Shown here piece after piece: positions 14,555-62,850 of a stretch of DNA of 64,000 nucleotides. The stretch's first letter is position 1; each line of letters opens with the position of its first letter. The DNA lies in the NCBI GenBank assembly GCA_947591785.1, contig CANQDK010000002.1:79069-143068 (forward strand). Reading direction: 5' to 3'. The position numbers and the translations under genes were made by a program. The notes beneath the pieces are model-generated. The model did not search any database. It worked only from the letters and a program-made list of their open reading frames with translations, and was not told where the DNA came from. Source of the DNA: an uncultured Clostridia bacterium (GTDB taxonomy: Bacteria; Bacillota; Clostridia; Christensenellales; UBA1242).

Positions 14555-14617
14555 AAAAACCTCACTGATTCATTTGAGAATTTTTTTGCAAGTGTTAGCC
14601 TTTAAATCTATATTTTT

Positions 14618-15772: not shown

Positions 15773-15851
15773 ATAGTATAAGTAAAGAAAATACATTTCT
15801 TTGAATAAAATTTACCATATTTTTTGCAATTTTGCAAGCAAAAGGAGAAAA

Positions 15852-16797: not shown

Positions 16798-16873
16798 TTA
16801 TAGAAATCTTATTGCTTATTAATAGTAAAATCCTAAAGTAAAAAACATATCTTAAAAAAAATACATACTTAAA

Positions 16874-17539
16874 CTAATAAAAAATTGGAATTATTTTTGA
16901 AAGCAAGCTTTCATAAAGAAAATTTGAAATTTCTCCACTTTTAATAAACTGCAACAATCCTTCACTCATAATCAAATTTGAAATCATAGATAAAACAAAA
17001 AAGAGAACTCCAAAAACAAAAATTCCTTTAATTAAGCCGACAACACCCCCTAAAACACGATTTCCAATTGAAAGCCCACATTTTTTTACTATTTTAGTTA
17101 TAAAACATTTTAAAAATTTTAAAATTAACTCGATTAAAATAAATATAACAATAAATAAAGCAATCTTTATCAATACTTTTGAGATTGAAGGAGCTAATAT
17201 TTGTCCTGCTGTTAATGTGCCATCAAAAGTGATATTTCCAAGTAATTTTGCAATTAAAAGTCCAAACAATTCTCCAAATTTTGACGCTGTTAAAACTTCT
17301 CCAAATTTTTCAATACTAGTAAATTGTCCAGGGAATAACCCATTAAAAAGAACTGATATTGTTTCTTCAACATAATTCCCAACATAATTTTGTGCAAAAG
17401 GTAGAAAAACTTGCATAAGCTTCCAAGAAATTATTGCAACAAAAAAAACTCCAATGAGTGAAAATATCATTGATATAAAACCTTTAAAAAAACCTCGAGC
17501 AAAATAAAAAGACAAAAGTCCAAACAGAACAAAGTCCAT
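16874..17539 (-). CDS. CvpA-family membrane protein
   Basis: The N-terminus MDFVLFGLLSFYFARGFFKGFISMIFSLIGVFFVAIISW plus 4-5 TM helices fits the colicin V production (CvpA) family pattern. Confidence 0.65.
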   Translation of the reverse strand: MDFVLFGLLSFYFARGFFKGFISMIFSLIGVFFVAIISWKLMQVFLPFAQNYVGNYVEETISVLFNGLFPGQFTSIEKFGEVLTASKFGELFGLLIAKLLGNITFDGTLTAGQILAPSISKVLIKIALFIVIFILIELILKFLKCFITKIVKKCGLSIGNRVLGGVVGLIKGIFVFGVLFFVLSMISNLIMSEGLLQFIKSGEISNFLYESLLSKIIPIFY

Positions 17540-17624
17540 AATTAGAGTTTTGCCTTTTTATTTTTTTACAAACTTTACAAAACTAAATTTATTAAATTTC
17601 TTTTATTTAAAATGTTTCTATTTT

Positions 17625-18155
17625 TTAGATTGTTTCATCTTGCATATTTTTGTCAATTAAATCTGTCTTTACTTCAATATTTTCCTTTTTAGAAACATCT
17701 TCAGTTTGATTTCTTAATGTTTGAATATAATCATAAAGAGGTTGCATGTTTTTATCTATCAAATCAATATAAATACATCTGCCTTGATATATGCCATTAT
17801 TCCCTCTGTAAAGGTTAAAACCTTGATAATCTGGAATAACCTCAAAAACAAGTTCGTCAAAGAGTAAATCATTAATACAGTATTGCCTATCAAATTTCAA
17901 ATAGACAAAAGTCCCTTCCTTTGTTTTTTCTTGAAAATCATTTTCAAACATTACAGCAAGAGAAGGCAACGTATGTGAACCTTCAAAAAGGCTTTCTATT
18001 TGTGAACCTAACTCCACTTTCTGCTCTTCTGTGAGAATTATCTCTTGCCCATCAATACAAACATTTGTATCTTGAACAAATGGTAAAGCATCAATTGCTT
18101 GAAAGAAAGACATAATCATCATTGGCACTCCAAACACAAAAAATAAGAATCTCAT
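17625..18155 (-). CDS. Hypothetical secreted protein
   Basis: Signal-peptide-like MRFLFFVFGVPMMIMSFFQAIDA. GGAGGTG lies 4-5 nt upstream of ATG 18155; the track start at 18167 is a GTG overlapping the SD. Confidence 0.55.
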   Translation of the reverse strand: MRFLFFVFGVPMMIMSFFQAIDALPFVQDTNVCIDGQEIILTEEQKVELGSQIESLFEGSHTLPSLAVMFENDFQEKTKEGTFVYLKFDRQYCINDLLFDELVFEVIPDYQGFNLYRGNNGIYQGRCIYIDLIDKNMQPLYDYIQTLRNQTEDVSKKENIEVKTDLIDKNMQDETI

Positions 18156-36474: not shown

Positions 36475-38469
36475 TTAGAAATCAAATGGATTGGTTGATT
36501 TAAGTATCTTCTTGTTTCTCATCTTTATATCATAATAAACTTTTTGAGTATCCAAGCTTTTCATTATTCCAATGGCTGGTTGGGCATTTTTAACATAGAA
36601 AAGCGGAACTTGGTCATTTCGAGTCGCTTGCAATTTCATTGGATTATATCTAAACAACTTAACAATAACTGTTCCAAATGGAATCTGCCCCAGTTCGTAT
36701 GGTGTGATAAGTGCACGGTTTGAACGTTGAACACTGGTTTGAGTTGTTTTTTCTTCATAATTTTTGTTATTTTTAGAAATTGTTGCCTCTTCATGAATAA
36801 GCTGAACTTCACCACATTGTTTTGAAAAACTCTCCAGTGTTGGCTGATCATCAGTTCCAAGGAAAATCTGTGCATTGCAGTTTCCAAGAATTGTTTTTGC
36901 TGTGTCCTGTCCATATTTTGTTTCCATTTGTGTATATGACTGAACAACCATTTCAAATAAAATGTTTCGTCCACGAGAAACTGTTATCATACTGTCAAAT
37001 TTTGGAATTGGTGGCAAGTTTCCAAATTCGTCAAGCAAGAAATAAACATGGTGTGGAAATTTTTTGCTTGGATATGATTGAGCTTTATCAACCAATCTCT
37101 TGTAAAGTTGCGATATTCCCAAAATCGCAAGATTATGTCTTTCTTCACGATCATCTGGAATAACAAGATAAAGCACTGTTGGTTTACTTGTGAAATCATC
37201 AAAATTTATATCGCTCTGTGAAGTCAAATAGGCAATTCCTATATCATTCATAAAAGAAATTTTTCCGTTCAAAACACCCATATATGATTTTGTTGTGTTT
37301 GGTGCGTTGTTGATGACTGCCGAAGTCAAATTTTGAACAATTGATGTTGCTTCATCTCGCCCTTCCAAAAGATATTTTCTCACAGTGTCAAATGGAGCGT
37401 CTGCATCAGGGTCACGAAAAGTTGCAATCTTATAGAGATTAAAGAAATTGAATTTTTCTTTTGTCATGCCAAGTTCTGGATTAAGACTGTCCTCAAGCAT
37501 TGCCAAAGCACAACCATACAAATAGTCTTGAGCACCTTCTTCCCATGTTGGATCGGTTGCATTTTTTGACTTTGGAGCAATTGTGTTGCAAATCTCTTTT
37601 AATTCATTTTGTGCTTGAGCACAATAAACTTGTTCTGCCGAGTTTACAGCAACCCTCAATTCGTCTTCAGTTGGATATGCAATGCCTTCAAAACCAAACC
37701 ATTCCTTACCATATTTCGCACCAGGAATTTCTTTAAAACCAAATTCTTTTGGCTTTGCACCATTTGTGCATTTTTTTATGTTATTTTTACAATTTTTGCC
37801 TTTGTGATACATGTCAAATGCATGTTCCATTGGATTCCAACGTGTTGACGAAAATGGATCACGCAAATCCAAAGTAATAACACGATATCCCTCATCTTGC
37901 ATAATTCTGCTTGTCTTTTGATAAAGCTCTCCCTTAGGATCGGATACCACCATACAAGGTTTCTCAGCTGTGTGTGCTAAAATTCTTATTGTTGGAATCA
38001 AACATATGGAAGTTTTACCTGAACCTGTTGTTCCTATGATAAGACAATGATACTCGTCCTTCATCGCAATTTGGTATTTTCCATTTTCCATAACATTTCT
38101 AAAAACAATTCCAGTGTTTTTCAACTGAGGGAGCTGATTCCATGTTGTTGCGATAAGCCCAAACTGTTTTGGAATATCCTCTGGTTTTAACCATTTTGCA
38201 TTAAAGGACAAATCCATTTCTTGCCCATCTGAAGTTTTACCAGTTGATTTTGCATTTGGCCTGCTGTCAACCTTCTTCGGATTAATAAGCCAAAAAATTC
38301 CTAATGCCAAAACAAAGCCAACAGCAATTCCAACAAAAGCATAATCTGCTAAGAAAGCATCAAGGAATGATGGTGGCTCTTTTGTGAAGTAAAAAATTGC
38401 CACACCACCAAAATAACCAATAATAACACCAATAATTATAAAAACAAAAATATTCTTCTTAATCTTCAT
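36475..38469 (-). CDS. Type IV secretion/conjugation coupling protein (VirD4/TraG/TraD family), orphan
   Basis: Two N-terminal TM helices. Walker A IIGTTGSGKTS, then VVSDPKGELY, then Walker B VYFLLDEFGNLP. AAGAGGA lies upstream of ATG 38469. No other conjugation genes are in the window. Confidence 0.85.
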   Translation of the reverse strand: MKIKKNIFVFIIIGVIIGYFGGVAIFYFTKEPPSFLDAFLADYAFVGIAVGFVLALGIFWLINPKKVDSRPNAKSTGKTSDGQEMDLSFNAKWLKPEDIPKQFGLIATTWNQLPQLKNTGIVFRNVMENGKYQIAMKDEYHCLIIGTTGSGKTSICLIPTIRILAHTAEKPCMVVSDPKGELYQKTSRIMQDEGYRVITLDLRDPFSSTRWNPMEHAFDMYHKGKNCKNNIKKCTNGAKPKEFGFKEIPGAKYGKEWFGFEGIAYPTEDELRVAVNSAEQVYCAQAQNELKEICNTIAPKSKNATDPTWEEGAQDYLYGCALAMLEDSLNPELGMTKEKFNFFNLYKIATFRDPDADAPFDTVRKYLLEGRDEATSIVQNLTSAVINNAPNTTKSYMGVLNGKISFMNDIGIAYLTSQSDINFDDFTSKPTVLYLVIPDDREERHNLAILGISQLYKRLVDKAQSYPSKKFPHHVYFLLDEFGNLPPIPKFDSMITVSRGRNILFEMVVQSYTQMETKYGQDTAKTILGNCNAQIFLGTDDQPTLESFSKQCGEVQLIHEEATISKNNKNYEEKTTQTSVQRSNRALITPYELGQIPFGTVIVKLFRYNPMKLQATRNDQVPLFYVKNAQPAIGIMKSLDTQKVYYDIKMRNKKILKSTNPFDF

Positions 38470-38554
38470 AAAATCCTCTTTCAATTCTATTCAATTTTTA
38501 TTTTATATCTAAAATTAAAAAAAAGCAAGAAAAGAGAGATATTTTCAAATAAAT

Positions 38555-38829: not shown

Positions 38830-38905
38830 GCCCGTGTAGCTCAATGGATAGAGCATCGGTCTTCGGAACCGAGTGTTGCGTGTTCGAGTCGCGTCACGGG
38901 CACCA
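38830..38905 (+). tRNA. tRNA-Arg: tRNA-Arg (anticodon UCG), CCA encoded
   Basis: GCCCGTGTAGCTCAATGGATAGAGCATCGGTCTTCGGAACCGAGTGTTGCGTGTTCGAGTCGCGTCACGGGCACCA. The acceptor pair is GCCCGTG/CACGGGC and the anticodon stem TCGGT/ACCGA with loop CTTCGGA. The T-arm has GTTCGAGTC. Confidence 0.9.
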
Positions 38906-50534: not shown

Positions 50535-50973
50535 ATGCAAGAAGTTTTTGAATTTTTAGAGAACAATCCTGTGCAATATTGTGCTACAATAGGTTTGGAC
50601 GGAAAGCCAAAAGTTAGGCCTTTTCAAATGATGTATCACGAGCAAGGCAATTTGTTCTATTGCACAGGTGCAAAAAAAAGATGTGTATGCAGAGCTTACA
50701 AAAAATCCATATTTGGAAATAAGCGTTTCTACACTTGATAAATGGCTTCGCATTCGTGGAAAAGTGCATTGGGTTACAAACAACGAAACAAGAGAAAAGT
50801 GTTTGAATGCAAGCCCACTTGTAAAATCAATATACAAAACAGCGGACAATCCTATTTTGCAAGTTTTCTACATTGAGGACGCAGAAGCTGTGCTTGCCGA
50901 TTTTTCTGGCAATCCGCCAAAGAAGTTTAATCTTAATAAATGTGAGGAAAATGGAAAAACAAAAAGTAATTGA
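50535..50973 (+). pseudogene. Pyridoxamine-5'-phosphate-oxidase-like (FMN-binding split-barrel) gene disrupted by a +1 nt frameshift in an A8 run
   Basis: The track ORFs 50529-50738 and 50668-50973 are two halves of one protein: ...NLFYCTGAKK | DVYAELTKNPYLEISVS...RIRGKV. They join if the A8 run at 50672-50679 is read as A7. Confidence 0.7.
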
Positions 50974-51706
50974 CAAGCTTTTGAATATGCTTGCAAAAAA
51001 ACTTAATTTGAAAATTCAGCCGACGGGCGACTACCTACAAGATAGACGCCTGTTTCGTGGCGTTTGTAATCAGCTTCCGCCTATGGATTTGGGAGATGAT
51101 TTTTATAAATTGCAAGATGAACTTTTGAAAACTGAAAGCATAGAAAAAGGTGTTGTTGACATAAATTCTTTGAAATATAAAAACAATATTTCGCTTTTTA
51201 AGGGCGATATAACAACACTCAAAGCAGACGCCATTGTCAACGCAGCAAACGACCAATTTCTTGGTTGTTTTGTGCCATGCCATAATTGTATTGACAATGT
51301 GATTATGAGTGCAAGCGGCTTTCAAATGCGAAATGAACTTGCTCGGCTTAAAAAACAAAAAAATTATGATAACGAGTTTGTAAAAATAACAAGCGGATAC
51401 AACTTGCCATGCAAGTATGTTTTTCATGTTGCAGGGCCACAAATTTTTGGCGAAGTAACCGAAAAAGATAAGCAGGATTTGGCGAATTGTTATCTTTATT
51501 GCTTAAACAAAGCAAAAGAAATGGGATTAAAAAGTATAGTATTTTGTTGTATTTCAACAGGTGTTTACTCTTTTCCAAACGAACTTGCTTGTGAAATTGC
51601 AATTAAAACTGCTCGAGATTGGCAAAGCAAAACAAAAAGCAATCTAAAAATTGTTTTTAATGTTTTTAAGGATATTGATGAGGAACTTTATGAGCAAAGA
51701 TTATGA
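50951..51706 (+). CDS. Macro-domain protein (ADP-ribose binding / protein-ADP-ribose hydrolase type)
   Basis: Motifs ISLFKGDITTLKADAIVNAANDQFLG, VFHVAGP and CISTGVYSFP (GxY-type phosphate loop). GAGGAAA lies upstream of ATG 50951; the track start is 50873. Confidence 0.8.
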   Translation: MEKQKVIDKLLNMLAKKLNLKIQPTGDYLQDRRLFRGVCNQLPPMDLGDDFYKLQDELLKTESIEKGVVDINSLKYKNNISLFKGDITTLKADAIVNAANDQFLGCFVPCHNCIDNVIMSASGFQMRNELARLKKQKNYDNEFVKITSGYNLPCKYVFHVAGPQIFGEVTEKDKQDLANCYLYCLNKAKEMGLKSIVFCCISTGVYSFPNELACEIAIKTARDWQSKTKSNLKIVFNVFKDIDEELYEQRL

Positions 51707-52049: not shown

Positions 52050-52286
52050 ATGAACGAAACAAATAATTCAAGAAAAAGAAGGTCAACAAGGTCAAAAATA
52101 GGCAATGCTCTTTTAACTGCAGGCGTGATTATGGGTGTGGCAGGCATTGCCAAATCAATTAAAAAGTCTAATGACGAGCAGCCAACAAGTAAGGTCAAGT
52201 ATTGCAGCGAGTGCGGAGTAAAAAACGAAATCACTGCAAATTTCTGTTGGCAATGTGGACATAAATTTGTTCAAATAGACAAATAA
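52050..52286 (+). CDS. Small bitopic membrane protein with a C-terminal zinc-ribbon
   Basis: TM segment IGNALLTAGVIMGVAGIA, then KYCSECGVKNEITANFCWQCGHKF (CxxC-x10-CxxC). Confidence 0.6.
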   Translation: MNETNNSRKRRSTRSKIGNALLTAGVIMGVAGIAKSIKKSNDEQPTSKVKYCSECGVKNEITANFCWQCGHKFVQIDK

Positions 52287-52297: not shown

Positions 52298-52861
52298 ATG
52301 GCAGAACTTAATGGAAATTACGTTAACGAAGAAAATCATCAAAAGGTAAAAACAAAACTTCAAAAAATTGGATATGTCCTGTTGGGTGTTGGTGCTGTTT
52401 TCAGTATTGTGGGCATTGTGTTGTTGATTTTTGGTTTCACATCAATGGGCAAAATAGTTGAAAAAACCGAGCCTGGAATTCCAACAGTAGGTCAAGGATT
52501 TTCTTCAAGTATCGGCTTATTTATAGGTGGAGGAATTTTGTTAACTATCGGCATAGGTATGTTTGCTTATGGTGTCTATGCATCATTTTTTGCTCATGCA
52601 CGTGAAATAGCCGCGTATGGTGCAAGCACGGTTGCTCCAGTTATTGGAGAGACAACAAACTATCTTGCAGATGAAACATCTCCTGCAATTCAGAAAGTTA
52701 CAAGTGCTATTTCAAATGGAATAAGAGGAAAACAACCAAACGAAAAAGCTGAAACACAAAGTGAACAACAAATAAATTCTGATATAAAATATTGCACTGA
52801 GTGCGGAGCAAAAAACACTCGTGAATCAAAATTCTGCACAAAATGCGGAAACAAATTTTAA
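52298..52861 (+). CDS. Membrane protein (2-3 TM) with a C-terminal zinc-ribbon
   Basis: AAAGGAGAAAATT SD. TM segments IGYVLLGVGAVFSIVGIVLLIFGF and IGLFIGGGILLTIGIGMFAYGVYASFF. The C-terminus is KYCTECGAKNTRESKFCTKCGNKF. Confidence 0.7.
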   Translation: MAELNGNYVNEENHQKVKTKLQKIGYVLLGVGAVFSIVGIVLLIFGFTSMGKIVEKTEPGIPTVGQGFSSSIGLFIGGGILLTIGIGMFAYGVYASFFAHAREIAAYGASTVAPVIGETTNYLADETSPAIQKVTSAISNGIRGKQPNEKAETQSEQQINSDIKYCTECGAKNTRESKFCTKCGNKF

Positions 52862-53036: not shown

Positions 53037-53480
53037 TTATAAATCTCTAAAGTTCTCTCGAGCAACCATTCCAAGAATGCCAGCACCTGCTATAGAAGTT
53101 ACGCTGGCTAAAACTAAACCTGCTCCAATGCTTGCGTCTTTTATAGCGGTTTTATATAATTTTTCACAACAATCTTTATGCCCTTCTTCGACCCAAATAT
53201 TGCGGAAAACACTTAAATCTTCTGTTCCATTGATATAAGACACCCTCACATCAAACTCCGAATTCGATATTTCCCCATTATCGAATTTTTCTTGAACCTT
53301 TTGAAGTTCTTCTAAACGATAGTTGTCATACGCTTTTGCTTCGTTTAAATGTCCCCGCCATGAAAAAATGCCTCCACCTATCATAAGTCCAACCGAGCCT
53401 GCACCAATTACGGCAGCACCTAAACTGCAAATAATTCCTGCTTTCAAACAAGATTTTCTCCAACTTTTATCTGAATACAT
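53037..53480 (-). CDS. Small two-TM protein with glycine-zipper-like helices
   Basis: AAAGGAGAAAAAAT SD. TM helices GIICSLGAAVIGAGSVGLMIGGGIF and ASIGAGLVLASVTSIAGAGILGMV flank an ~80-aa soluble loop. It lies directly downstream (same strand) of the AAA+ gene. Confidence 0.6.
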   Translation of the reverse strand: MYSDKSWRKSCLKAGIICSLGAAVIGAGSVGLMIGGGIFSWRGHLNEAKAYDNYRLEELQKVQEKFDNGEISNSEFDVRVSYINGTEDLSVFRNIWVEEGHKDCCEKLYKTAIKDASIGAGLVLASVTSIAGAGILGMVARENFRDL

Positions 53481-53510: not shown

Positions 53511-53546
53511 AACAAGACTTTCTGAATTTCTTCAAAAAGTCTTGTT
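53511..53546 (-). other. Perfect 11-bp-stem hairpin between the AAA+ gene and the glycine-zipper gene
   Basis: AACAAGACTTT (53511-21) pairs with AAAGTCTTGTT (53536-46) across a 14-nt loop. On the minus strand it is followed by TTTCTTTCTG and then the SD/ATG of the 53480 gene. Confidence 0.5.
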
Positions 53547-53787: not shown

Positions 53788-55806
53788 TTATCCGTTTGCT
53801 TTTTTCCATTCTAGAATTTTTTCAATGTCCTCTTTTTGAACAGAAGGAGTGGTTTGAGAAAGTGCCTCAACAAAGTCATCGTTACAAATAAATTTTTCAT
53901 TTGTTTTTAAACCTCGTATAGCAGAAATTTCCTCAACTTTGTCAAGAAGGGAAGAAATATCTGCACCATTGAAGCCTTCTGTATTTTTGACAACATTTTC
54001 AATGTCAAAATCTCTTATCTCAACAACTTTTTTCTCTTTCAATTTTTCCATTCGTCTGTTTATCATGTATTGTCTCGCAGGAGCATCTGGCAATCCTATA
54101 TAAATTCTTGTTCCAAAACGCCCTGGCCTTAGAAATGCACTATCCACATCCCATGGTTTGTTTGTTGACGCAATGAGAAATAATATATTCTTATTTTCTT
54201 TGCCGTAATCTTCAATGCCTTGCAATTGTGACAACAACTCTGATCTCAATTGTTTTGCATATTGTGCCCTGGTCGATTTTGAGGAAATTGAATCCATCTC
54301 ATCAAAATATATAACTGCACACGGAAATTGTCGTGCCTGCAAGAACAATGATTTTACTGCTTTTTCAGTGTTTCCAATTCCTGTATTTAAAAGGTCGGAA
54401 GGTTTAATTGAACAAAACTTTGCACCAATTTCATTTGCTATCGCAGCTGCTATCATGGTTTTTCCTGTTCCAGGAGGTCCATACAGCAAAAGCCCGCCTC
54501 CGCTTTTTCGAACATACCCTTCAAAAGCATCAGGGCGTTGAAGAGGCAATAAAACTTTCACTTTGACAACTTCTTTCACATTTTCTAGTCCTGCGATGTC
54601 ATCAAAATTTATTGCTGGAAGGTTGTCCCAGTCAAATTTATATTCATTTTTTTCTTCTTCTTTTTCAAAAGAAAACTTCTCTTCAATTTTTTCATTTTTG
54701 TCTATTTTTTCATCATTAGACATGTTCACTTCAAGCGGAATATCTTCCATTGTTATCGTTTGTAATTGGCTGTCACTTGGCTCATCCATTTGAGCAATTC
54801 GCTTAGACTGTTTTGTAACAACATTTTCAAAAAAGTTTCTCACATCTCTTCCATTACCAAAATTTTTACCTCTGTTTTGATAAAGAGAATAAAAATATTT
54901 CTGTAAGAAATGCTTTACATCTTCTTCAATAACATACTGACTCTTTTGACAAAATTTGACGAAAATGTTGTATAATTCTTTTCCGTCATAGTCATCGAAA
55001 TGAATAAAGTTTTTGAAACGAGATTTAAGGCCAGGATTTGAATTTATAAATTTTTCCATAGGTCCGTCATAACCAGCCACGATTACCACAAGGTCATCAC
55101 GCTTATCTTCCATTTCCTTTAATATGGTTTCAATAGACTCCTGTCCAAAGTCGTTTGAGCCACCACCCACAAGCGAATAAGCTTCATCAATAAACAGAAC
55201 TCCGCCTAGAGCCTTTTTGATAACTTCTCTTGTCTTTTCAGCGGTCTGCCCAACATAACCAGCAACAAGTCCGCCTCTGTCAACTTCAACTAAACTCCCC
55301 TCACTCAAGATTCCAAGTGCACAATAAATTTGAGCCATCAGACGAGCAACAGTTGTTTTTCCTGTTCCAGGATTTCCAGTGAACACAAGATGATATGACA
55401 TATCAGGAACGGACAAGCCTCTTTCCTTTCGCTTTTGAAAAACTTTTATTTGGTCAACCCAGTCGCGAACCTTCGCTTTAACCTTTCCCAAGCCCTCAAG
55501 ATTTTCAAGACGACTTAATGCTTCTTCAAGGGAGATTTTTTCATTTTTCTGAGCTTCAACTTCTTTATTTACAGATTTTTCTTTCTTAGGTAAATCAATG
55601 CTTTCCGCCATTTCAATTAAACTTTTTGCTCTGCTAAACCTTGCTTTTTGAAGTTGATTATCGCTTGCCTTTGCCATTTTTAACATCTGTTCAGCAGCAA
55701 GAAAATAATATCGCTTTGCAAGAAGCATATCTTTTTTTTCGTGACACTCCTTTGCTTTGCGATAATAAAGTTCAAATGTTTCATTTAACAAACTTATGTC
55801 AGGCAT
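53788..55806 (-). CDS. MIT-domain protein with two AAA+ modules (SpoVK/CbbX-type followed by Vps4/katanin-type)
   Basis: aa 1-75, ELYYRKAKECHEKKDMLLAKRYYFLAAEQMLKMAKASD...RAKSLIEMAESI, follow the MIT three-helix pattern. AAA-1 has HLVFTGNPGTGKTTVARL...VLFIDEAY...VIVAGY. AAA-2 has LLLYGPPGTGKTMIAAAIA...VIYFDEMDS...ASTNKPWDVDSAFLRPGRF. The C-terminus ...TPSVQKEDIEKILEWKK resembles meiotic-clade AAA proteins. Confidence 0.85.
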   Translation of the reverse strand: MPDISLLNETFELYYRKAKECHEKKDMLLAKRYYFLAAEQMLKMAKASDNQLQKARFSRAKSLIEMAESIDLPKKEKSVNKEVEAQKNEKISLEEALSRLENLEGLGKVKAKVRDWVDQIKVFQKRKERGLSVPDMSYHLVFTGNPGTGKTTVARLMAQIYCALGILSEGSLVEVDRGGLVAGYVGQTAEKTREVIKKALGGVLFIDEAYSLVGGGSNDFGQESIETILKEMEDKRDDLVVIVAGYDGPMEKFINSNPGLKSRFKNFIHFDDYDGKELYNIFVKFCQKSQYVIEEDVKHFLQKYFYSLYQNRGKNFGNGRDVRNFFENVVTKQSKRIAQMDEPSDSQLQTITMEDIPLEVNMSNDEKIDKNEKIEEKFSFEKEEEKNEYKFDWDNLPAINFDDIAGLENVKEVVKVKVLLPLQRPDAFEGYVRKSGGGLLLYGPPGTGKTMIAAAIANEIGAKFCSIKPSDLLNTGIGNTEKAVKSLFLQARQFPCAVIYFDEMDSISSKSTRAQYAKQLRSELLSQLQGIEDYGKENKNILFLIASTNKPWDVDSAFLRPGRFGTRIYIGLPDAPARQYMINRRMEKLKEKKVVEIRDFDIENVVKNTEGFNGADISSLLDKVEEISAIRGLKTNEKFICNDDFVEALSQTTPSVQKEDIEKILEWKKANG

Positions 55807-55816: not shown

Positions 55817-56377
55817 TTAAGACATCTTTTTCTTTAACTGTTCAAGTTCCTTTTCAATCTCACTGTCAACCGCACCATCCATGCTTGCTTCATTGTTGAG
55901 AACAGCTTCAAGTTCTTTATGTTCTTCTTCACTAGTCATTGTGCGAGAAGAGAAAGTCGATTGAGTTTCTTCCAAAAATTCTTCCATCTGCTCGGCTTGA
56001 ACTTCGACACCCATCATTGCCTCATTAAACTGCTTCTCAACCTTCTTAAAGTCGGATTCTTTTGTAAGTTTCATCATATCCTTGCTTAAAACACTCATGC
56101 CTGCAAGAAAGTCAGAAGTCATTTTTGTCATATCTTTCATTTGAGAGGTGATTTCAAAATTTAACTTCATTTCATAAACACTTCTCTGCTGAGAAATTGT
56201 CATTTTTAAACCAGCTAAGGCAAGATTGTATTGAGCAGTAAGGCCTTTTTGTTTTGCCTCCTTTCCAGCATCAATATAGCCTTGCTTTTGTTTTTCAAGC
56301 TTCTGGATTTGTTTCTCCATTTCGTTTATTGTGCGTTTTATAAGCATACGCTTTTCAATTTCTTTTTTAGACGACAT
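55817..56377 (-). CDS. ESCRT-III/Snf7-like (PspA/Vipp1 superfamily) coiled-coil protein with a C-terminal MIM1-like motif
   Basis: 186 aa, all-helical heptad pattern. INEMEKQIQKLEKQKQGYIDAGKEAKQKG + LTAQYNLALAGLKMTISQQRSVYEMKLNFE reads as an alpha1/alpha2 hairpin. MTSDFLAGMSVLSKDMMKL...FKKVEKQFNEAMMGVEVQAEQMEEFLEE matches the Snf7 alpha3-alpha5 pattern. An acidic linker follows, then the terminal DSEIEKELEQLKKK. Confidence 0.6.
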   Translation of the reverse strand: MSSKKEIEKRMLIKRTINEMEKQIQKLEKQKQGYIDAGKEAKQKGLTAQYNLALAGLKMTISQQRSVYEMKLNFEITSQMKDMTKMTSDFLAGMSVLSKDMMKLTKESDFKKVEKQFNEAMMGVEVQAEQMEEFLEETQSTFSSRTMTSEEEHKELEAVLNNEASMDGAVDSEIEKELEQLKKKMS

Positions 56378-56388: not shown

Positions 56389-56985
56389 TTATTTATTTTC
56401 ATCACTACTCGTTTTGGTTTCGGCGGAAGTTGAAAACATTTCTTGTTCATTGTCAATTTGCTCTTCTGTTTCAAACATGGCAAGAAGTGCATCATCTTGG
56501 TCGCTCATTCCGTATATGCTTTCATTCTTGTCATAAGACTCTTCAACCTCTTTAAAAACTTCGTCAGCAGATGTCAAAATATCTTCGCTCTTTGTCTTTG
56601 TTCCAAGTGCTTTATTCAAAAACTTTGCAAGCCCTTTTTGGTCTGCAAGAAGTTTGTTAAGCGGAATTTTTGTTGTGTTTTTAAAAAATTGATTGTCATC
56701 TATTGCGGTTTTAAGTTTGTTTAAAAGTTGAGTGTTATACATGAGATACATTGCTCGCTGAACACTTTGTTCTCTTTCAAGTTTAAGTGAGTTGATTTTT
56801 TTTGCATAAAAAAGTTTGACATCTTTCTCTTTTTCAGCCTTTCCCTTTGCCATTAACTGATTGATTTGTTCTTGTTTTGCACTCAAACCTTCTTCAATTT
56901 CTTTTTCTTCTTGTTCAAGTTTGCAAATGGCGTCAACCACTTCTTCGCGTGACATTTTGTCATATTTATTTTTAAAAAACCACAT
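56389..56985 (-). CDS. Second ESCRT-III/Snf7-like coiled-coil protein
   Basis: 198 aa. It has an aromatic N-terminus (MWFFKNK). LEQEEKEIEEGLSAKQEQINQLMAKGKAEKEKDVKLFYAKKINSLKLEREQSVQRAMYLMYNTQLLNKLKTAI fits the Snf7 hairpin pattern (K..A...lk.kk..e.q). The C-terminal tail is acidic. Confidence 0.5.
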   Translation of the reverse strand: MWFFKNKYDKMSREEVVDAICKLEQEEKEIEEGLSAKQEQINQLMAKGKAEKEKDVKLFYAKKINSLKLEREQSVQRAMYLMYNTQLLNKLKTAIDDNQFFKNTTKIPLNKLLADQKGLAKFLNKALGTKTKSEDILTSADEVFKEVEESYDKNESIYGMSDQDDALLAMFETEEQIDNEQEMFSTSAETKTSSDENK

Positions 56986-56998: not shown

Positions 56999-57325
56999 TT
57001 AAAGTTTTGCGTTTCTGTCAGCGATATTAAGACGAATATCTGCAAGAGCATTTTCAACTTTTTTGCTGGTTTCACCATCTGATTTGACAAGGGCAATTCT
57101 CATATCCTCAATATGTCTTTTGATTTTGACATCAAAATCATAAATCTTATCATCAGGAGAAGGAACAAGATATTTAATTTTTTCCTTTAATTCTTTAAGT
57201 TTTTCAACCAAATTTTCATCTTTTTCGGCAAGAATTAAAAGAGCATCAATAGCCTTTTCGTTTTGACTTATAAGTTCTCTGTCTTTTGTATTGTTTTGTG
57301 AATTTTTCTTTTTAAATAAGCCCAT
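56999..57325 (-). CDS. Small helical protein with a CHMP-like MGLFKKK N-terminus
   Basis: 108 aa with a TAGGAGG SD. It is predicted all-helical and its family is unassigned. Confidence 0.5.
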   Translation of the reverse strand: MGLFKKKNSQNNTKDRELISQNEKAIDALLILAEKDENLVEKLKELKEKIKYLVPSPDDKIYDFDVKIKRHIEDMRIALVKSDGETSKKVENALADIRLNIADRNAKL

Positions 57326-57335
57326 TTTAAACCTC

Positions 57336-58355
57336 CTATTTTAACTTTGTTCCGCAAGACGAACAGAACACTGCATCTTTATCATTTAACTTTCCGCATT
57401 TTGGACAAAGATTTGTGTCTTTTCCAACTTTCTTTCCACATTTTGCACAGAATTTGTCATTGCCACTGATTTCCGCTCCGCAGTTTGAACAGAACGAACC
57501 TGTTTTGTTATCTTTTGGATGGCCAATGATTTTCAAAACTTCATAATATGCATTTTTGTCTGCCAATTCAAGTTGGCGGAGATATTTTTCTCTTTCCCAT
57601 TGTTTGTCATCAAGTCTTTCAAGTTCGGCAAGATACTCTTTGACTTTCTCGTTTTTCTTCACTTCGGCAGCAGCTTCTTCGACAGCATTGCTATCTTCGT
57701 CACTTATGCCCAAATATTCAATGACAAAATTGCTAAGTCCAATTCCCCAACTGTTTTCAAAAATTTTGCTGAGGAGTTTTCCAGTGTTCTCTTGGATTTT
57801 TTTCTTGTTTGCATCAAATTTGTCATACGTCAACTTTAACTCATCAACAACTTTCAAGAAATTGTCAGTAAATTCACTTAAAACATTTGCACTAAATCTT
57901 TCTTGGAATTCATCAAGGCTGAACTCTTTTTTGACACCAACAACTTTTCTGAAAAATTGTTCAGGATTAACGATTACAACATCAAAGACACCATGTGCAG
58001 CAACACTGATAACTTTGTTGCTTGCCTCATCTCTATATTTGATTTTTTCCTTTGTCCCCCACTTTATAGGAACATTTGGGTCTTTTGGCATATAGATTAT
58101 GTCTACAGATGAGCCGATTTTCCAATTTTTAACTTCTGTCTTGTCGTCAAAAACAGGATAAGTTCCACTCTTATAAACTCTTCCATCTCCGCCACCTTTG
58201 ATGACATAGGCGATATGTGTAAGTGGAACTTCAAACATAGCCTTTTTGTTTTTAACCTGGTCGGTTACTCTCACAAACAAAATCTTATTGTCGTCAACAC
58301 TAGCTTTGCAAAGATTTTGTTCAAACTTAATCACTTGTGTTTCTTTTTTTAACAT
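57336..58355 (-). CDS. SPFH/Band-7-like protein with C-terminal tandem zinc-ribbons (COG4260/YdjI-type architecture)
   Basis: AAGGAGAG SD before ATG 58355; the track start is 58403. A beta-rich N-terminal ~230 aa is followed by the coiled-coil KVKEYLAELERLDDKQWEREKYLRQLELADK. The C-terminus is FCSNCGAEISGNDKFCAKCGKKV...LCPKCGKLNDKDAVFCSSCGTKL. Confidence 0.65.
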   Translation of the reverse strand: MLKKETQVIKFEQNLCKASVDDNKILFVRVTDQVKNKKAMFEVPLTHIAYVIKGGGDGRVYKSGTYPVFDDKTEVKNWKIGSSVDIIYMPKDPNVPIKWGTKEKIKYRDEASNKVISVAAHGVFDVVIVNPEQFFRKVVGVKKEFSLDEFQERFSANVLSEFTDNFLKVVDELKLTYDKFDANKKKIQENTGKLLSKIFENSWGIGLSNFVIEYLGISDEDSNAVEEAAAEVKKNEKVKEYLAELERLDDKQWEREKYLRQLELADKNAYYEVLKIIGHPKDNKTGSFCSNCGAEISGNDKFCAKCGKKVGKDTNLCPKCGKLNDKDAVFCSSCGTKLK

Positions 58356-58471
58356 AACTCTCTCCTTAAAAAATTTTTCTTTAGAAAAATAATATTCTGT
58401 CAATTCATTATATCACTAAACGATGTGGAAAAGTCAAGTGTTTTACATTCTGTAAACCTTTACATGCAAAA

Positions 58472-59221
58472 TTAGAACATAGGTATAGTCTTTCTCACAC
58501 TTGACAAAAATTGGATTATGATATCGCAAGGCACTGCAAAATTCATGCCTTCTGCACCAGTGACACCCGAAACTATTGCACCAATCACTTTTCCTTTTTC
58601 GTTGAACATAGGGCCACCCGAATTTCCACCATTTATTGCACAGTCTGTCATTAAAAGTCGTTTTCCTTTGACAATTCTTGACTTATCGCTGACAATTCCA
58701 CTTGTGATGCAAGTTCCAGCACCCAACGAATTCCCAACAACATAAACTTGTTCGCCGATACGAACTTTTTCAAAGTCTTCAAATTCAAGTGCAACAGCCC
58801 CTCTTGGTAGATATTGCAATTTGATAAGTGCCAAATCGACACCACTGCCATCTCCGTGTCTATCGTCACCCAATGCAACAACCACTGCAGGAACTTTTGT
58901 GTTGTTTATCTTCACCCAAACTTGTTCACAAGACTTGCCATCTGCAAATGTGACGACATGAGTATTTGTGATTGCATATCCCTGTTTGTTGATGAGAAAG
59001 CCCGAGCCTGAGTTTAGAATGTTTCCATTTTGCCAAGTGATTTCAAGAATGCCGCCAATGTTTTTTTCAAACACACTTGCACCACCGCTTATAGATTTTT
59101 CTTTCACGTGAACTGACTCTGTCATCACGTCATCTTCTGAAAAAACCGAACCGCAATACAAACATTTATATTTCCCGTTTTCTTGTTTTTTACATTCACC
59201 TTGACAGAATTTGCAATTCAT
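58472..59221 (-). CDS. Zinc-ribbon-fused trypsin-like (S1/HtrA-type) serine protease, no signal peptide
   Basis: N-terminal CKFCQGEC-x10-CLYCGSVF. The catalytic triad context is AITNTHVV (His), VDLALIKL (Asp) and NGGNSGGPMFN (Ser). AAGGAGG SD. Confidence 0.8.
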   Translation of the reverse strand: MNCKFCQGECKKQENGKYKCLYCGSVFSEDDVMTESVHVKEKSISGGASVFEKNIGGILEITWQNGNILNSGSGFLINKQGYAITNTHVVTFADGKSCEQVWVKINNTKVPAVVVALGDDRHGDGSGVDLALIKLQYLPRGAVALEFEDFEKVRIGEQVYVVGNSLGAGTCITSGIVSDKSRIVKGKRLLMTDCAINGGNSGGPMFNEKGKVIGAIVSGVTGAEGMNFAVPCDIIIQFLSSVRKTIPMF

Positions 59222-59275: not shown

Positions 59276-62200
59276 TTATACATCTTTTTTCCACGTCTCA
59301 GTCCTATAATCGGATTTAAGTAATTGTGCCATTTTAGTAGGATTTTTCAACTCATAATAAATTCCTTTTGAACCAGCATGCCAACCAGTTGACGTATCTT
59401 TAAATACTACTTCATTTAGATTTTTGAGACTTGAAAATGCATAACTGTTTATGGTGGTAAGTCCTGTAGAAATTGTCACCTTTGTAACCCTTTCCATCAT
59501 TTCACCTGGAATCCAGCCACCGTCTATTGTTATTACCACCTTTCCATTAAGTTCTTCTGGAATTTCAATTTCAACATCACCATCATCTCTGATATAACAA
59601 GTTCTAACTTCCCCCGATGTAATTCTCAAAAGGTAGCCCTCCCCCACAAACACTTGGCTTTGATAGAGAGGAATCATTCCCAAGCATACAGAAATCAAAA
59701 CTGGTGCTATGAATGGCAAGAAAAGCATTATTTTGTCTACTGTGACGCTATATGGCTCTCTATAATATGCCACCATACAGTAAATAGTCACTAATAATAA
59801 TATGCTGAACAAAATTAGCATTGGAATTAATATGTAATCATCACCCATAAATCCGACAGCATAGACAAGCCAGAAATCAAATTTTCCACAAAGCGTTAAA
59901 ATCAACGTAACAACTATGCCAGCACCCAAAATAAACGATGCAGGAAGAAGAATATAGCGTTGTGGCCTTGTTTCGTCCCACCCTTCGCGGCCAAAAAAAT
60001 ATACAAAAGCTTTCCAAAGCATTATTAAAGGAAAACCAATTATCATAAAGAATTTTTTGATTAAAGATGCATTAAGAAATTGCATTCTATATGTGCGATC
60101 TAGTTTGTTGTCGTATCTATGTGTCTCTATTAATTCTCTTTTCTTTTTAAAATTGTCTGAATAATAATCATTTTCACTTTCTTGCAATTCTTTTAAACAT
60201 TTTTCTATATCGTTGTGATTAAAAATGTTTGCAAGTGCTATAAGATTGTCAAATACATCAGTTTTCATTCTTGGAAGACGAGAACCATGATAAGTTTGAT
60301 TTAAAGCCAATTTTAATTCCCCTGTTGCACTCTTCAGCCCCTTACATATATTTGATGGAGTGGAAGTTTTCAAATTTAACCCATAATTGTTGTTAAATCT
60401 TTTAACTAAATCTTTTAAATAATTTTCACTAAAGGTTTCGTAGGCTTTTTTGTAAATCGGTAGCATGTCGTTTTTGTGAAGTTTTGAATCAAATCCAAAA
60501 CTTATGGTTGGAACCATATATTTGTTTACTTTTGCACAATCAGCCACAGCTTTATTTAATTCAAGATAATAGTTTTCAGCATTTGGAAACTTTTCTGTGT
60601 AGGTGTTTATTGCTGAAAGATAATCTTCATCGTCTAAAAGTTCATCAGAATACTTCATTAAATCTGCATCTTGAACAACTTTATGTCTAACCAAAAATCT
60701 GTTAAAATAAGCATTATGGTCAAACGGGTCAATTGAGAGGACAAGATTGATATATTCAGCGATTTTATCAAAATCCTTTTTTAAATAGTCTATATTTTCT
60801 GCCCCTTGCACTTCGCCCATTTTTTCAATTCGATAGTTCACTCTGTTTGAAAAGTCTTCAAAGTCATAGAGATAATCCAAAAACGAGTTTACCGTATTTT
60901 TAAACATTTCGTTTTCTTGCTTTGGTATCATGCTGAGCAAAAAGTCAAATATGCTGCAAGCACTATCAATATCTCTTTTGCCAGATTCATCTCTTTTATT
61001 GATTGTTATTTCTGTCAGTTTTTTAACCGCATAATTGTTATAGCCATAGGCAAAAACTTGTTCTTCAATCGTCTTTTGATTTTCGATATTACTGCAATAT
61101 TCGTAAATCAAATCATCGTTTAACAAATTATTCTCTACTAAGAAAGTTTCATAAAGAGCCTCTTGATTTGATGGATCAATGCTTAAAATGTTGTCATAAT
61201 ATGTTTTTCGGTTTTCGGCAGGAAGAATATGTAAAAACTCTGTGTTCATCTTTAAATAAAGGTCGGTATCCTTAATCGTTCTGATAATACTATTGAACAC
61301 TGTTTCATCTTTTGATTCCAATGCGGATTTAAACATAACACTTGTTAAGGTTGCAATTGATTCATCATCTGAATCAGGCAAAGCAATATATTCTTCATAA
61401 TCGGAAAGATTTTTATGTTTTTTAACTCTTTCCTCAAGCAAATCATACAACGAGTTGTCATCTTTATGGCGTGTTGCGATAGCCTTTTCAAAGACACTAT
61501 AATCGTCTATCTTTGGACATTCCACAAACTTCTCTTTGTCTGAAAATTTGTTTTCAGCAAGGAATGAAATAAAATACGCGTCACTAAGACTAGGATTTAT
61601 GCCCAAAATGCTATTGCAGAAAGACTGAGCATGAACATAGTCACCATTTTTCAAAAGATCTTCCGCATTTTTAAGCATTGTAAGTTCTGAAATTGTGGCT
61701 TTTTTACCCTTTAAATCTCCCAAATCCCTCTTTTTGATGGCTTGTTTATTTAATTGCTTTTTCTTTACTTGAATTTCGGCATAATCTTTTCTTTGAATTG
61801 TTGGAATATTTGAAGAAGAAAATTTATCTACAAAATCCAACACCTGTTGAAGTGCCTTATAGTTGTTAAAATCAATACCTTGAATTTTTCCCTTAACATT
61901 TGGCAATTTTTCAACAGGTTTACCTTTAAAAACAAAGGTTATACTCCCATCTTCCTTTTCACCCTCGGAAAGCATGTGATTATATCTTGAATATTCATTT
62001 CGAACCCAAGGAGTCTGCAAATATGCTTCATTTGTGCAAACAATAATCATGCTTTTTGCACAATAAAGAGCATAGAGAATCATTGCCTCATAGTCCGAAC
62101 CAACTTTGCCACTCATTTCCTCTTCCGAGTAGAAAGGTTTATAGTCAAGTTTTCTCAGTTCGTGATAAAGTTTTGAAGCGATTGTGCTGTCCTCTGTGTG

Positions 62201-62734
62201 ATTTCCCTCTTCAGTGGTAACTTTCACGCAGATAAAGGTGTCGTAGTCAAGTCCAGAATTTTTAAGTTCAAAAAACTTGTTTCTTATGTAGTCTATCTCT
62301 TCCGCCTTTGCCTTATAAATGGCTCTCTGCTCTGGCGAAGCAAGTTCCATCGCTTTGAGATAGTTTTTGTCTTCTACAAATTTATTACTGCTGACATCAT
62401 AACAAATAGGTTGAAAGCGATATTTCACTCCATCTTCCCCATTTGTGACATCTTTAAGATACTGAACCTTTGCTGTTGCAAGAGCCATTCCAAAGTAACC
62501 CTCAGGCCCATCTGGTTCAAGTTCTGTTGCCTTTTGGAACATTATGTAGGCATCATCAAAGTGAAAGGTTTCAAGATTTTGTTCACCTTCCACTAATTTA
62601 GACCTTGTTGAAGAAAATGACTTAGGTAAAATCATTTTGCTTCTGCAATATGGACATGTCAACACGCCATTCACAGAGGTTGTTATATCAAGTTTGCCTT
62701 CACAGTTTTTACATCTCAATTCATTAACATTCAT
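59276..62734 (-). CDS. Zn-ribbon / TPR-like / TIR-domain protein with a long helical region, 4-5 TM helices and a C-terminal BspA-type LRR-like segment
   Basis: N-terminal CKNCEGK-x15-CPYCRSK. The TIR-like block is DYDTFICVKV...EDSTIASKLYHELRKLDYKPFYSEEEMSGKVGSDYEAMILYALYCAKSMIIVCTNEAYLQTPWVRNEY. The TM cluster includes FFMIIGFPLIMLWKAFVYFF...IMLFLPFIAPVLISVCLGMIPLY. The C-terminus is VTKVTISTGLTTINSYAFSSLKNLNEVVF. GAGAGG lies 6 nt upstream of ATG 62734. Confidence 0.7.
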   Translation of the reverse strand: MNVNELRCKNCEGKLDITTSVNGVLTCPYCRSKMILPKSFSSTRSKLVEGEQNLETFHFDDAYIMFQKATELEPDGPEGYFGMALATAKVQYLKDVTNGEDGVKYRFQPICYDVSSNKFVEDKNYLKAMELASPEQRAIYKAKAEEIDYIRNKFFELKNSGLDYDTFICVKVTTEEGNHTEDSTIASKLYHELRKLDYKPFYSEEEMSGKVGSDYEAMILYALYCAKSMIIVCTNEAYLQTPWVRNEYSRYNHMLSEGEKEDGSITFVFKGKPVEKLPNVKGKIQGIDFNNYKALQQVLDFVDKFSSSNIPTIQRKDYAEIQVKKKQLNKQAIKKRDLGDLKGKKATISELTMLKNAEDLLKNGDYVHAQSFCNSILGINPSLSDAYFISFLAENKFSDKEKFVECPKIDDYSVFEKAIATRHKDDNSLYDLLEERVKKHKNLSDYEEYIALPDSDDESIATLTSVMFKSALESKDETVFNSIIRTIKDTDLYLKMNTEFLHILPAENRKTYYDNILSIDPSNQEALYETFLVENNLLNDDLIYEYCSNIENQKTIEEQVFAYGYNNYAVKKLTEITINKRDESGKRDIDSACSIFDFLLSMIPKQENEMFKNTVNSFLDYLYDFEDFSNRVNYRIEKMGEVQGAENIDYLKKDFDKIAEYINLVLSIDPFDHNAYFNRFLVRHKVVQDADLMKYSDELLDDEDYLSAINTYTEKFPNAENYYLELNKAVADCAKVNKYMVPTISFGFDSKLHKNDMLPIYKKAYETFSENYLKDLVKRFNNNYGLNLKTSTPSNICKGLKSATGELKLALNQTYHGSRLPRMKTDVFDNLIALANIFNHNDIEKCLKELQESENDYYSDNFKKKRELIETHRYDNKLDRTYRMQFLNASLIKKFFMIIGFPLIMLWKAFVYFFGREGWDETRPQRYILLPASFILGAGIVVTLILTLCGKFDFWLVYAVGFMGDDYILIPMLILFSILLLVTIYCMVAYYREPYSVTVDKIMLFLPFIAPVLISVCLGMIPLYQSQVFVGEGYLLRITSGEVRTCYIRDDGDVEIEIPEELNGKVVITIDGGWIPGEMMERVTKVTISTGLTTINSYAFSSLKNLNEVVFKDTSTGWHAGSKGIYYELKNPTKMAQLLKSDYRTETWKKDV

Positions 62735-62820
62735 CACAGACCTCTCATAAAATTAAAAAAACAACTTCAACATGACGGCTCAGTTTTGCTAAATAAACTA
62801 TGCATCAATAATACATATTA

Positions 62821-62850
62821 ATTCTACCATTTAAGTGTAAACTATGTCAA
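62821..62850 (-). promoter_or_regulatory. Near-consensus extended -10 promoter of the seven-gene TIR/ESCRT-III-like operon
   Basis: The minus strand reads TTGACA (62850-45), an 18-nt spacer, then TGgTAGAAT (TAGAAT at 62826-21), ~80 nt upstream of the start codon. Confidence 0.55.

Follow-up and report, generated by a model that had tools for sequence, protein, structure and literature searches.

TIR (Toll/interleukin-1 receptor) domains with NADase activity require self-association for activity and use a conserved glutamate, and in SARM1 an alpha-solenoid ARM domain regulates a membrane-associated TIR NADase. In Bacillus subtilis, the SPFH protein YdjI is described in two papers as localising the ESCRT-III-superfamily protein PspA to the membrane (PMC10936438, PMC7619361). 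Archaeal ESCRT loci of the 'Meth_adaptin' kind also hold an SPFH–coiled-coil–Zn-ribbon protein (PMC10936438), and a survey of the phage shock protein (PSP) system linked PspA/Snf7 proteins to bacterial AAA+ ATPases and band-7 proteins, and not to Toll/IL-1R TIR domains; the 'Tir' named in that paper is an unrelated CesT/Tir chaperone (PMC11237479). Here, a TIR protein is described that is encoded by an uninterrupted open reading frame (ORF) at 59276..62737, on the minus strand of a 64,000-nucleotide stretch, hereafter the window, of contig CANQDK010000002.1 (assembly GCA_947591785.1, positions 79,069 to 143,068), from an uncultured Clostridia bacterium of the Christensenellales. Its gene stands first in an operon that also encodes a protease, an SPFH protein, a Snf7-like protein and an AAA+ ATPase, and judged from gene neighbourhoods its family appears to be a near-obligate component of this conserved operon in gut Clostridia. 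With moderate confidence, the protein is read here as a membrane-anchored TIR NADase that would form the sensor and effector arm of an ESCRT-like envelope machine, a reading whose mechanism we infer. The original prediction, made from the letters and reading frames of the window, had described a receptor-like multi-pass membrane protein with a TIR domain and a leucine-rich repeat (LRR)-like end.

The TIR protein and its family

The TIR domain occupies aa 165-307 (61817..62245, minus strand), as delimited by Pfam and by an AlphaFold2 (AF2) model; residue numbers are counted throughout from a GTG at 62737. Pfam TIR_2 (PF13676) matched aa 181-294 with 37.3 bits in the whole protein and 41.8 bits in the isolated region, against a cut-off of 28, which is far beyond chance and identifies the predicted domain as genuine; nearly all listed homologues carry a precomputed PF13676 assignment. 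The full-length AF2 model was built with 55 homologues and has a mean predicted local distance difference test score (pLDDT) of 80, with values above 90 through most of aa 1-740. In this model the TIR region adopts an alternating beta/alpha, flavodoxin-like fold, mostly at pLDDT >90, in which bA (167-171), aA (182-196), aB (214-226), bC (229-233), aC (243-257), bD (266-270), bE (287-289) and aE (295-307) can be distinguished. When the full-length model was used as a Foldseek query, TPR superhelices dominated and no TIR or LRR structures were returned, a result that is uninformative on those two domains.

A candidate NADase catalytic glutamate lies in the motif W244-V-R-N-E248 (61994..62008, minus strand), a WxxxE motif at the start of helix aC. 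When the query was aligned to 54 homologues of full length, both W244 and E248 of the surrounding 'TPWVRNEY' proved invariant. In a wider set of 121 distinct relatives from genomes and metagenomes, each of the two is kept in 114 of the 116 aligned relatives, E217 and R251 are kept in all 116, and the TIR core residues D166 and F168 in at least 114. Such conservation agrees with a catalytic site being under selection. In a search of PDB sequences with a TIR-region profile, W244 and E248 aligned with the W and E of 'SRWCLDEL' in the RUN1 TIR domain (6o0w), although the match was weak (E=0.8); we take the glutamate of that motif to be the NADase catalytic residue in plant and bacterial TIR enzymes. 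A single-sequence search of the same region against PDB sequences gave one spurious match only. The domain is thus predicted to be catalytically competent, with NAD+ cleavage as its putative activity, and the TIR assignment made originally is borne out by the TIR_2 match above the Pfam cut-off, the AF2 fold and the presence of the E248 glutamate.

The remainder of the cytoplasmic part also agrees with what had been proposed for it, namely a zinc ribbon and TPR-like helices upstream of the TIR domain and a helical region downstream. An N-terminal C4 zinc ribbon spans aa 7-36 (62630..62719, minus strand), with cysteines C9, C12, C28 and C31 kept in 119-120 of the 121 relatives and strands modelled by AF2 over the same residues. 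It is followed at 62255..62611 (minus strand) by a three-helix TPR-like unit (aa 43-88), a beta-hairpin (91-112) and further helices (124-161) leading into the TIR domain; the TPR-like unit gave weak Pfam matches to TPR_17 and TPR_11 and is helical in the AF2 model at pLDDT ~80-97. Beyond the TIR domain, a disordered K-rich linker (aa 308-348) connects to a TPR-like alpha-solenoid of ~490 aa (aa 349-840; 60218..61693, minus strand). This region is all-helical in the AF2 model, mostly at pLDDT >90, and its Foldseek matches in the PDB are TPR superhelices (Ctr9, Ski3, OGT), with E values down to 2.6e-6.

As an ORF opening at the GTG, the gene encodes 1153 aa and ends with a stop codon at 59276-59278. 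The true start is probably the ATG at 62734, because a GAGAGG ribosome-binding site stands 6 nt before it; this gives 1152 aa, the length reported originally. The best sigma-70-like promoter match in the region upstream of the ORF lies at 62821..62850 (minus strand) and reads TTGACA-18-TAGAAT with a TG extension; it is a consensus match only, at 11 of 12 positions.

The Zn-ribbon–TPR–TIR module can be found in hundreds of proteins, essentially all from metagenome-assembled genomes (MAGs) of gut Clostridia, including rabbit-gut uncultured Clostridia, Christensenellaceae/Christensenella and 'Candidatus Coproplasma'. Several paralogues occur per genome, with at least five loci in each of two MAGs. 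Source annotations call the members no more than 'TIR domain-containing protein' or 'leucine-rich repeat protein'; the protein of the window is itself absent from the index of encoding contigs. The 104 complete members comprise 45 soluble proteins, 36 with transmembrane (TM) helices only, and 23 with TM helices followed by a C-terminal domain. What follows the module may be nothing, 1-12 TM helices, LRR_5/LRR_8 arrays, or beta-helix-like 'GNGHTI' repeats. Sequence comparison therefore depicts a large and rapidly diversifying family whose constant part is the Zn-ribbon–TPR–TIR module and whose C-terminus is freely swapped. Two operon-terminal members are unusually long: a TIR-module ORF of at least 2609 aa, still open where the locus sequence stops (L091, 12728-20554), and a 1656-aa TIR and LRR_5 protein with a glycine-rich C-terminal repeat region (L089, 12450-17420).

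Four hydrophobic segments were found in the TIR protein of the window (A to D: aa 893-915, 928-950, 968-992 and 1003-1025). A multi-pass membrane protein, as first proposed, is thereby supported, and the '4-5 hydrophobic helices' of that proposal are four and not five. Segments B, C and D make up a conserved three-helix membrane unit (59660..59956, minus strand; TM-B, TM-C and TM-D), recognised by hydropathy and as helices in the AF2 model, with a short 'FDFW' loop helix between TM-B and TM-C. In sequence they match TM1-3 of homologues (P0008 and others), with 'FDFW' corresponding to 'CEFW' in the first loop and 'ILIPMLIL' to 'LLIIPMLIL' in TM2. Segment A (59993..60061, minus strand) is marginal and specific to the TIR protein of the window. 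It is an insertion absent from all eight of the 3-TM homologues inspected, has K/R-rich flanks on both sides, and carries the weakest insertion score, with a summed Hessa dG of +1.8 against -0.8, -3.0 and +0.6 for B, C and D.

These segments bear on a reading in which the protein is a Toll-like receptor (TLR)-style receptor, its external C-terminal LRR binding a ligand such as a protein of a phage or a surface molecule of the host or of a microbe and thereby activating the cytoplasmic TIR domain. Most close homologues have three TM helices, followed by nothing or by a C-terminal domain of 145-1100 aa. Across 12 homologues with three TM helices and a C-terminal domain, the mean number of K+R residues is 5.6 before TM1, 1.1 in loop 1-2, 3.7 in loop 2-3 and 1.3 after TM3, and because of this pattern their predicted orientation is clearly N-in/C-out, as a receptor of this kind would need. 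Likewise in its favour, where the C-terminal domain reaches 100 aa or more, the number of TM helices is odd in 18 members and even in 5, and the domains that follow the TM helices are of BspA-LRR or beta-helix ('GNGHTI') type, both typical of surface proteins. A TLR-like inside/outside arrangement is accordingly likely for the family on the basis of predicted topology.

For the copy in the window the position is less simple, since the original argument held the LRR-like end to be outside and the TIR domain inside if the TM count were odd. That arrangement holds in prediction for the 3-TM homologues; the window copy has an even count, and a naive reading of four segments places the LRR tail in the cytoplasm, which speaks against the receptor. 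The query's B-C-D unit nevertheless keeps the charge pattern of the 3-TM homologues and segment A is marginal, so that the simplest reading makes segment A interfacial or re-entrant and leaves the tail outside. A C-out orientation is judged fairly probable for this protein from these sequence features, the alternative being a true four-TM protein with a cytoplasmic tail.

The tail itself is a beta-rich domain of aa 1027-1153 (59279..59659, minus strand) that opens with a 'VGEGY' entry motif and holds one or two BspA-type LRR_5 repeats. Pfam LRR_5 (PF13306) scored 16.9 bits in the whole protein and 21.9 bits in the isolated tail (E=1.7e-4), below the cut-off of 27.7, and the match covers only positions 13-45 of the 127 in the profile. 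Its best-matching part, aa 1082-1121 (nt 59375-59494), is homologous to the LRR_5 arrays of several paralogues that carry PF13306/PF13855 with 6-13 repeats each (full-sequence E 6e-15 to 3e-9), and for this reason the repeat type is taken as real, with only one or two units predicted. The entry motif, in the form 'xG(D/E)GY', is common to LRR_5-bearing homologues, where it opens their LRR_5 domains. AF2 modelled strands over aa 1029-1112 at pLDDT ~78-86, and the last 40 aa are poorly modelled. Of the BspA-type LRR-like tail proposed at the outset, then, the LRR_5-like character stands, whereas the repeats are reduced to one or two units below the Pfam cut-off.

So short and in part poorly modelled a tail counts against the receptor. 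Further against it, 45 of the 104 complete members have no TM helix, several of them carrying both TIR and LRR_5 on a single soluble, and therefore cytoplasmic, polypeptide; many operon-embedded copies have no LRR or other ectodomain at all. Ligand sensing by an ectodomain is therefore not the constant function of the family nor its conserved mechanism, and a TLR-style receptor is considered rather unlikely for the copy in the window.

The operon and the role of the TIR protein

The TIR gene is followed by genes for the protease, the SPFH protein, p108, p198, p186 and the AAA+ ATPase, all co-directional on the minus strand and separated by gaps of 10-68 nt. The protease (58472..59221, 249 aa) is a Zn-ribbon and trypsin/HtrA-like serine protease without a PDZ domain or TM helix; the SPFH protein (57336..58403) is flotillin-like, of the Band_7_1, YdjI type, and ends in a double zinc ribbon. 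p108 (56999..57325) is small and helical and carries the hydrophobic-basic motif MGLFKKK at its N terminus, and p198 (56389..56985) a conserved helical protein with N-terminal MWFFKNKY and an acidic tail. p186 (55817..56377) has a predicted Snf7/ESCRT-III fold, and the last gene (53788..55806) encodes a double AAA+ ATPase of 672 aa. A terminator-like hairpin at 53511..53546 (minus strand) marks the probable end of the operon. With SPFH, Snf7-fold and CdvC/Vps4-like AAA+ proteins encoded downstream, the TIR gene does head a membrane-remodelling-like operon, as had been suggested.

Searches with the window proteins found the SPFH, p108, p198, p186, AAA+ and protease genes adjoining the TIR gene in ~20 of 76 genome loci of the TIR family. 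Gene order varies, the TIR gene lying between p186 and AAA+ in some loci and after AAA+ or the protease in others. In the converse survey, which started from p186 and covered 29 metagenome loci and four look-ups, ~21 of the 25 informative loci had one or two TIR-module genes inside the operon, often between p186 and the ATPase, and the linkage extends to a clade with only ~50% p186 identity.

This linkage counts against a stand-alone abortive-infection TIR toxin or sensor that tends to insert beside the SPFH/Snf7-like operon while being functionally independent of it. Many paralogues do occur alone among unrelated genes, and at some loci the neighbours are GmrSD genes or a prophage integrase, as such a toxin would predict. 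Insertion accounts poorly for a TIR gene that is tightly spaced between p186 and AAA+ or between AAA+ and protease at many independent loci, in clades at 50% core identity, for the presence of a TIR-module gene in most p186-centred loci, and for the Zn-ribbon modules common to the TIR, SPFH and protease proteins; the explanation is regarded as very improbable. A short system in the P0008 locus (L001/L002; L001 6508-13525) consists of an SPFH protein, a p108-like protein and a 1174-aa TIR-3TM-LRR_5 protein, and is immediately preceded by a prophage holin and integrase; possibly it is prophage cargo or lies at an integration hotspot.

Over 26 operon loci, median identity to the window proteins is 66% for p186, 67% for AAA+ and 64% for p198, and 51%, 49% and 48% for SPFH, protease and p108, respectively; for the TIR protein it is 29%, over partial length. 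Because its median identity is 29% against ~65% for the core, the TIR protein is, as far as sequence comparison goes, the variable and fast-evolving part of an otherwise conserved machine.

Among the partner proteins, the protease matched Trypsin_2 (E=1.3e-27) and a degP_htrA domain and co-occurs in the operon at many loci. The SPFH protein matched Band_7_1 with 58.3 bits, together with Zn_Ribbon_1 and DZR. In two loci (L093 and L094, 7325-9037), matches to the SPFH protein and to the trypsin-like protease fall in one 571-aa stop-to-stop frame, which suggests a fusion and hence physical cooperation of the two; no TIR-module gene was seen within the flanks examined there. p108 is a conserved operon member, some orthologues of which carry an N-terminal TM helix. 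p198 gave no Pfam family, no match to PDB sequences by profile, and no profile similarity to p186.

The assignment of p186 draws on several partial signals. Its Pfam Snf7 score in the window is 14.3 bits against a cut-off of 27.3, and 8 of 11 orthologues match Snf7 below the cut-off, at best with 5e-4. A profile search of 1.84 billion representative proteins, in which distant members were taken at E<=1e-15, recovered 368 related clusters, and two distant members reach the Snf7 cut-off (P0329, 28.9 bits; P0379, 27.3 bits). Grouped at 50% identity the family numbers at least 368 clusters, and grouped at 90% at least 776. The AF2 model of p186 (pLDDT 64) has five helices (2-44, 47-104, 109-144, 151-162 and 170-185) in an ESCRT-III layout, and Foldseek ranks 1-16 in the PDB are all of the ESCRT-III superfamily, namely CHMP1B (2.5e-3), CHMP2A/CHMP3, Asgard ESCRT-IIIB, Vipp1 and Snf7; CdvB and PspA follow further down. 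The p186 profile found no matches among PDB sequences, and no PspA_IM30 match was obtained among the small proteins of the operon. A conserved C-terminal helix, D-x-x-I-x-x-E-L-x-x-L-K in the alignment, resembles the MIM1 motif. Taken from its model, p186 is therefore described as Snf7/ESCRT-III-like. Distant p186 relatives also occur as N-terminal domains fused to RuvB-like AAA+ ATPases (P0285, P0290, P0338, P0368 and P0379), some of which carry NERD or TnsA-like nuclease domains as well, and as domains fused to FtsK/SpoIIIE ATPases (P0294 and P0296); we know of no description of such Snf7-like–ATPase(–nuclease) fusions.

The ATPase combines a SpoVK/CbbX-like N-terminal half with a classical AAA C-terminal half. 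It matched AAA (E=7e-53), AAA_lid_6 and Vps4_C, the last with 24.6 bits against a cut-off of 21.3. Among the classical AAA families of NCBIfam, CdvC scored best (195.6 bits, short of the equivalog cut-off), followed by CDC48, PAN and FtsH, and the best PDB-sequence matches of the ATPase are VAT/p97 D2 and CbbX. A visual impression of an N-terminal MIT domain was unsupported by Pfam.

These properties of the core bring in another explanation, in which the TIR protein is a non-enzymatic adaptor, like CdvA or ESCRT-I/II/ALIX, that recruits the Snf7-like polymer and the ATPase for division, membrane fission in sporulation, or vesicle formation. A core at ~65% identity over divergent genomes, near spo0A or spoIIID in some loci, is what such an adaptor would lead one to expect, as is the SpoVK-like half of the ATPase. 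Variable membrane-targeting C-termini on a constant cytoplasmic module follow the logic of ESCRT adaptors, and archaeal ESCRT loci likewise hold an SPFH–coiled-coil–Zn-ribbon protein (PMC10936438). Pure scaffolding would not, however, need the near-invariant W244/E248 and the other residues of the catalytic pocket, and the paralogue expansion together with the 29% median identity suggests diversifying pressure; the adaptor is accordingly judged decidedly unlikely.

The favoured reading remains that of a membrane-anchored TIR NADase acting within an ESCRT-like envelope machine. Its cytoplasmic part would comprise the Zn ribbon, the TPR-like unit, the TIR domain and the TPR-like solenoid, held at the membrane by the three-helix anchor and ending in the miniature BspA-type LRR, so that the protein would serve as the sensing and executing arm of a sub-membrane machine. 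An envelope cue, for instance damage to the membrane or wall, attack by a phage or a ligand for the variable C-terminal domain, would gather the TIR modules at the membrane. Clustering could take place on an SPFH/ESCRT-III-like lattice through the Zn-ribbon/TPR module, or alternatively through the C-terminal domain or the TM unit. The clustered TIR domains would then cleave NAD+, leading either to its depletion or to a signalling nucleotide. Meanwhile remodelling or repair of the membrane would fall to the ESCRT-III-like polymer together with the AAA+ ATPase, while the protease may process a component.

Confidence in this reading is high for the anatomy and the linkage and low for the trigger and the output, both of which are guesses, as is the direction of information flow. 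Several results count against it. The sequence-profile match of the TIR region to a solved TIR structure is the weak one to RUN1 (E=0.8), the p186 model is only moderately confident (pLDDT 64) with a best Foldseek E of 2.5e-3, and Pfam detected no MIT domain in aa 1-106 of the ATPase, the NCBIfam CdvC alignment also starting after the MIT region. Many family members are encoded alone, away from the operon. The TIR protein matched none of the PADLOC-DB v2 families at E<=0.1, and no relatives were found among IMG/VR viral contigs, so there is no evidence of a phage-borne gene. The core operon, moreover, is highly conserved and in some genomes lies among housekeeping or sporulation genes (spo0A, spoIIID), a pattern more in keeping with a core cellular function than with a defence system, which would be patchy and mobile.

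Surroundings of the operon in the window

A Macro-domain protein-ADP-ribose hydrolase is encoded at 50873-51706 on the plus strand, ~1.3 kb past the end of the operon (PRK04143, 272.5 bits against a cut-off of 272, and Pfam Macro). It was considered as a partner acting on NAD products and set aside as coincidental, L072 being the single other TIR locus with a homologue nearby. On the plus strand, and thus convergent to the operon, 52050-52286 and 52298-52861 encode two small membrane proteins that both have a C-terminal C4 zinc ribbon. They bring the number of Zn-ribbon proteins within 11 kb to five, the TIR, protease and SPFH proteins being the other three, and they match other loci by their Zn ribbons only. 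Between the hairpin and these genes, at 53037-53480 (minus strand), lies the gene for a 147-aa two-TM protein with weak SHOCT/GvpG-like matches, which was not found in the related loci surveyed.

Farther away, a type IV secretion coupling protein (T4SS-DNA_transf, TraG-D_C) at 36475-38484 (minus strand) adjoins a tRNA-Arg at 38830-38905, which suggests an integrative conjugative element ~15 kb from the operon. GC content falls to 0.26-0.28 at 14001-18000, against 0.30-0.37 elsewhere in the window.

Comparison with described systems

SARM1 offers an analogy of logic only: it too joins an alpha-solenoid to a catalytic TIR domain and is membrane-tethered. The TIR protein differs from it in having no SAM domains and in its solenoid, which is of TPR rather than ARM type and lies C-terminal to the TIR domain.

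The TIR domain is most readily compared with those of bacterial TIR NADase immunity, including Thoeris ThsB, the TIR effectors of CBASS and Pycsar, TIR-APAZ/SPARTA and AbTir-type proteins. It shares with them the TIR_2-type domain and the W-x-x-x-E motif, and the fast evolution and paralogue expansion of its family are typical of immune components. Unlike these systems, the TIR operon encodes no ThsA, cyclase or Argonaute partner, and the TIR protein is membrane-anchored and embedded among SPFH, Snf7-like, AAA+ and protease genes. NCBIfam gave no match for the TIR protein, and matches to PADLOC in the operon were generic only, to the ATPase (IetA-like, 1e-40) and to the protease (RT-Protease_XI, LmuA).

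For the operon as a whole, B. subtilis pspA-ydjGHI is similar in uniting a Band_7_1 SPFH protein, an ESCRT-III-superfamily protein and Zn-ribbon proteins, YdjG among them having a Zn ribbon (PMC10936438, PMC7619361, PMC11237479). It differs in that the ESCRT-III-like protein of the window is Snf7-like and not PspA_IM30, in that no TPM protein (YdjH) is present, and in that the window operon adds the AAA+ ATPase, the protease and the TIR protein. Archaeal Cdv/ESCRT systems (CdvB with CdvC/Vps4) resemble it in the Snf7-fold subunit, the MIM1-like C-terminal helix, the classical AAA module with Vps4_C, and the SPFH and Zn-ribbon partner (PMC10936438). The differences from them are the bacterial host, the extra SpoVK/CbbX-like AAA module and the absence of a detectable MIT domain; no ESCRT-I/II or winged-helix components were seen in the operon, although these were not specifically looked for. 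To our knowledge, the TIR and protease components have no archaeal counterpart.

In the full-text literature, no description was found of a Toll/IL-1R-type TIR domain associated with Snf7, SPFH or Vps4-like genes, or of the full combination with an AAA+ ATPase and a protease; coverage was incomplete, and this is absence of evidence only. The TIR protein thus appears to combine a new architecture with a new conserved genomic partnership, and for the whole system we could not find a described counterpart. A bolder version, which we put forward tentatively and hold to be unlikely, is that gut Clostridia possess a genuine bacterial ESCRT-like machine with an obligate, diversifying TIR-NADase receptor-like arm, TLR-like in some members, forming a new system of immunity or envelope surveillance. 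If it were true, sensing of an attack on the envelope would be linked both with NAD+ signalling or depletion and with repair or scission of the membrane, and a Snf7-fold polymer, a CdvC/Vps4-like AAA+ ATPase and an SPFH scaffold would occur together in bacteria, against recent reviews that confine this combination to archaea and eukaryotes. Judged by the size of the p186 family, the system is widespread in prominent and poorly studied gut bacteria, the Christensenellaceae-related Clostridia. A testable idea that follows is that ESCRT-III-type polymers serve as activation platforms for immune NADases.

The comparison with animal Toll-like receptors is the one drawn in the original prediction. 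The likeness is that a single polypeptide unites an LRR-type domain with a membrane anchor and a TIR domain, the LRR being predicted outside and the TIR domain inside in the 3-TM family members. The order, however, is reversed, the TIR domain being N-terminal (aa 165-307), the anchor multi-pass, and a signal peptide absent. The repeats are of BspA LRR_5 type here, whereas TLRs have typical LRRs with LRRNT/LRRCT caps, and the Zn ribbon, the ~490-aa TPR solenoid and the NADase glutamate are features of the TIR protein that set it apart. Because the protein is not single-pass, its TIR domain is not C-terminal and its LRR type is not the typical one, the resemblance is one of convergent architecture, an analogy and not membership. 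Read in this way, LRR–TM–TIR receptor logic may have arisen independently in bacteria, and the TIR protein would represent a new wiring of TIR domains, to membrane-remodelling machinery in place of nucleotide-signal receptors, Argonautes or NLR-type ATPases.

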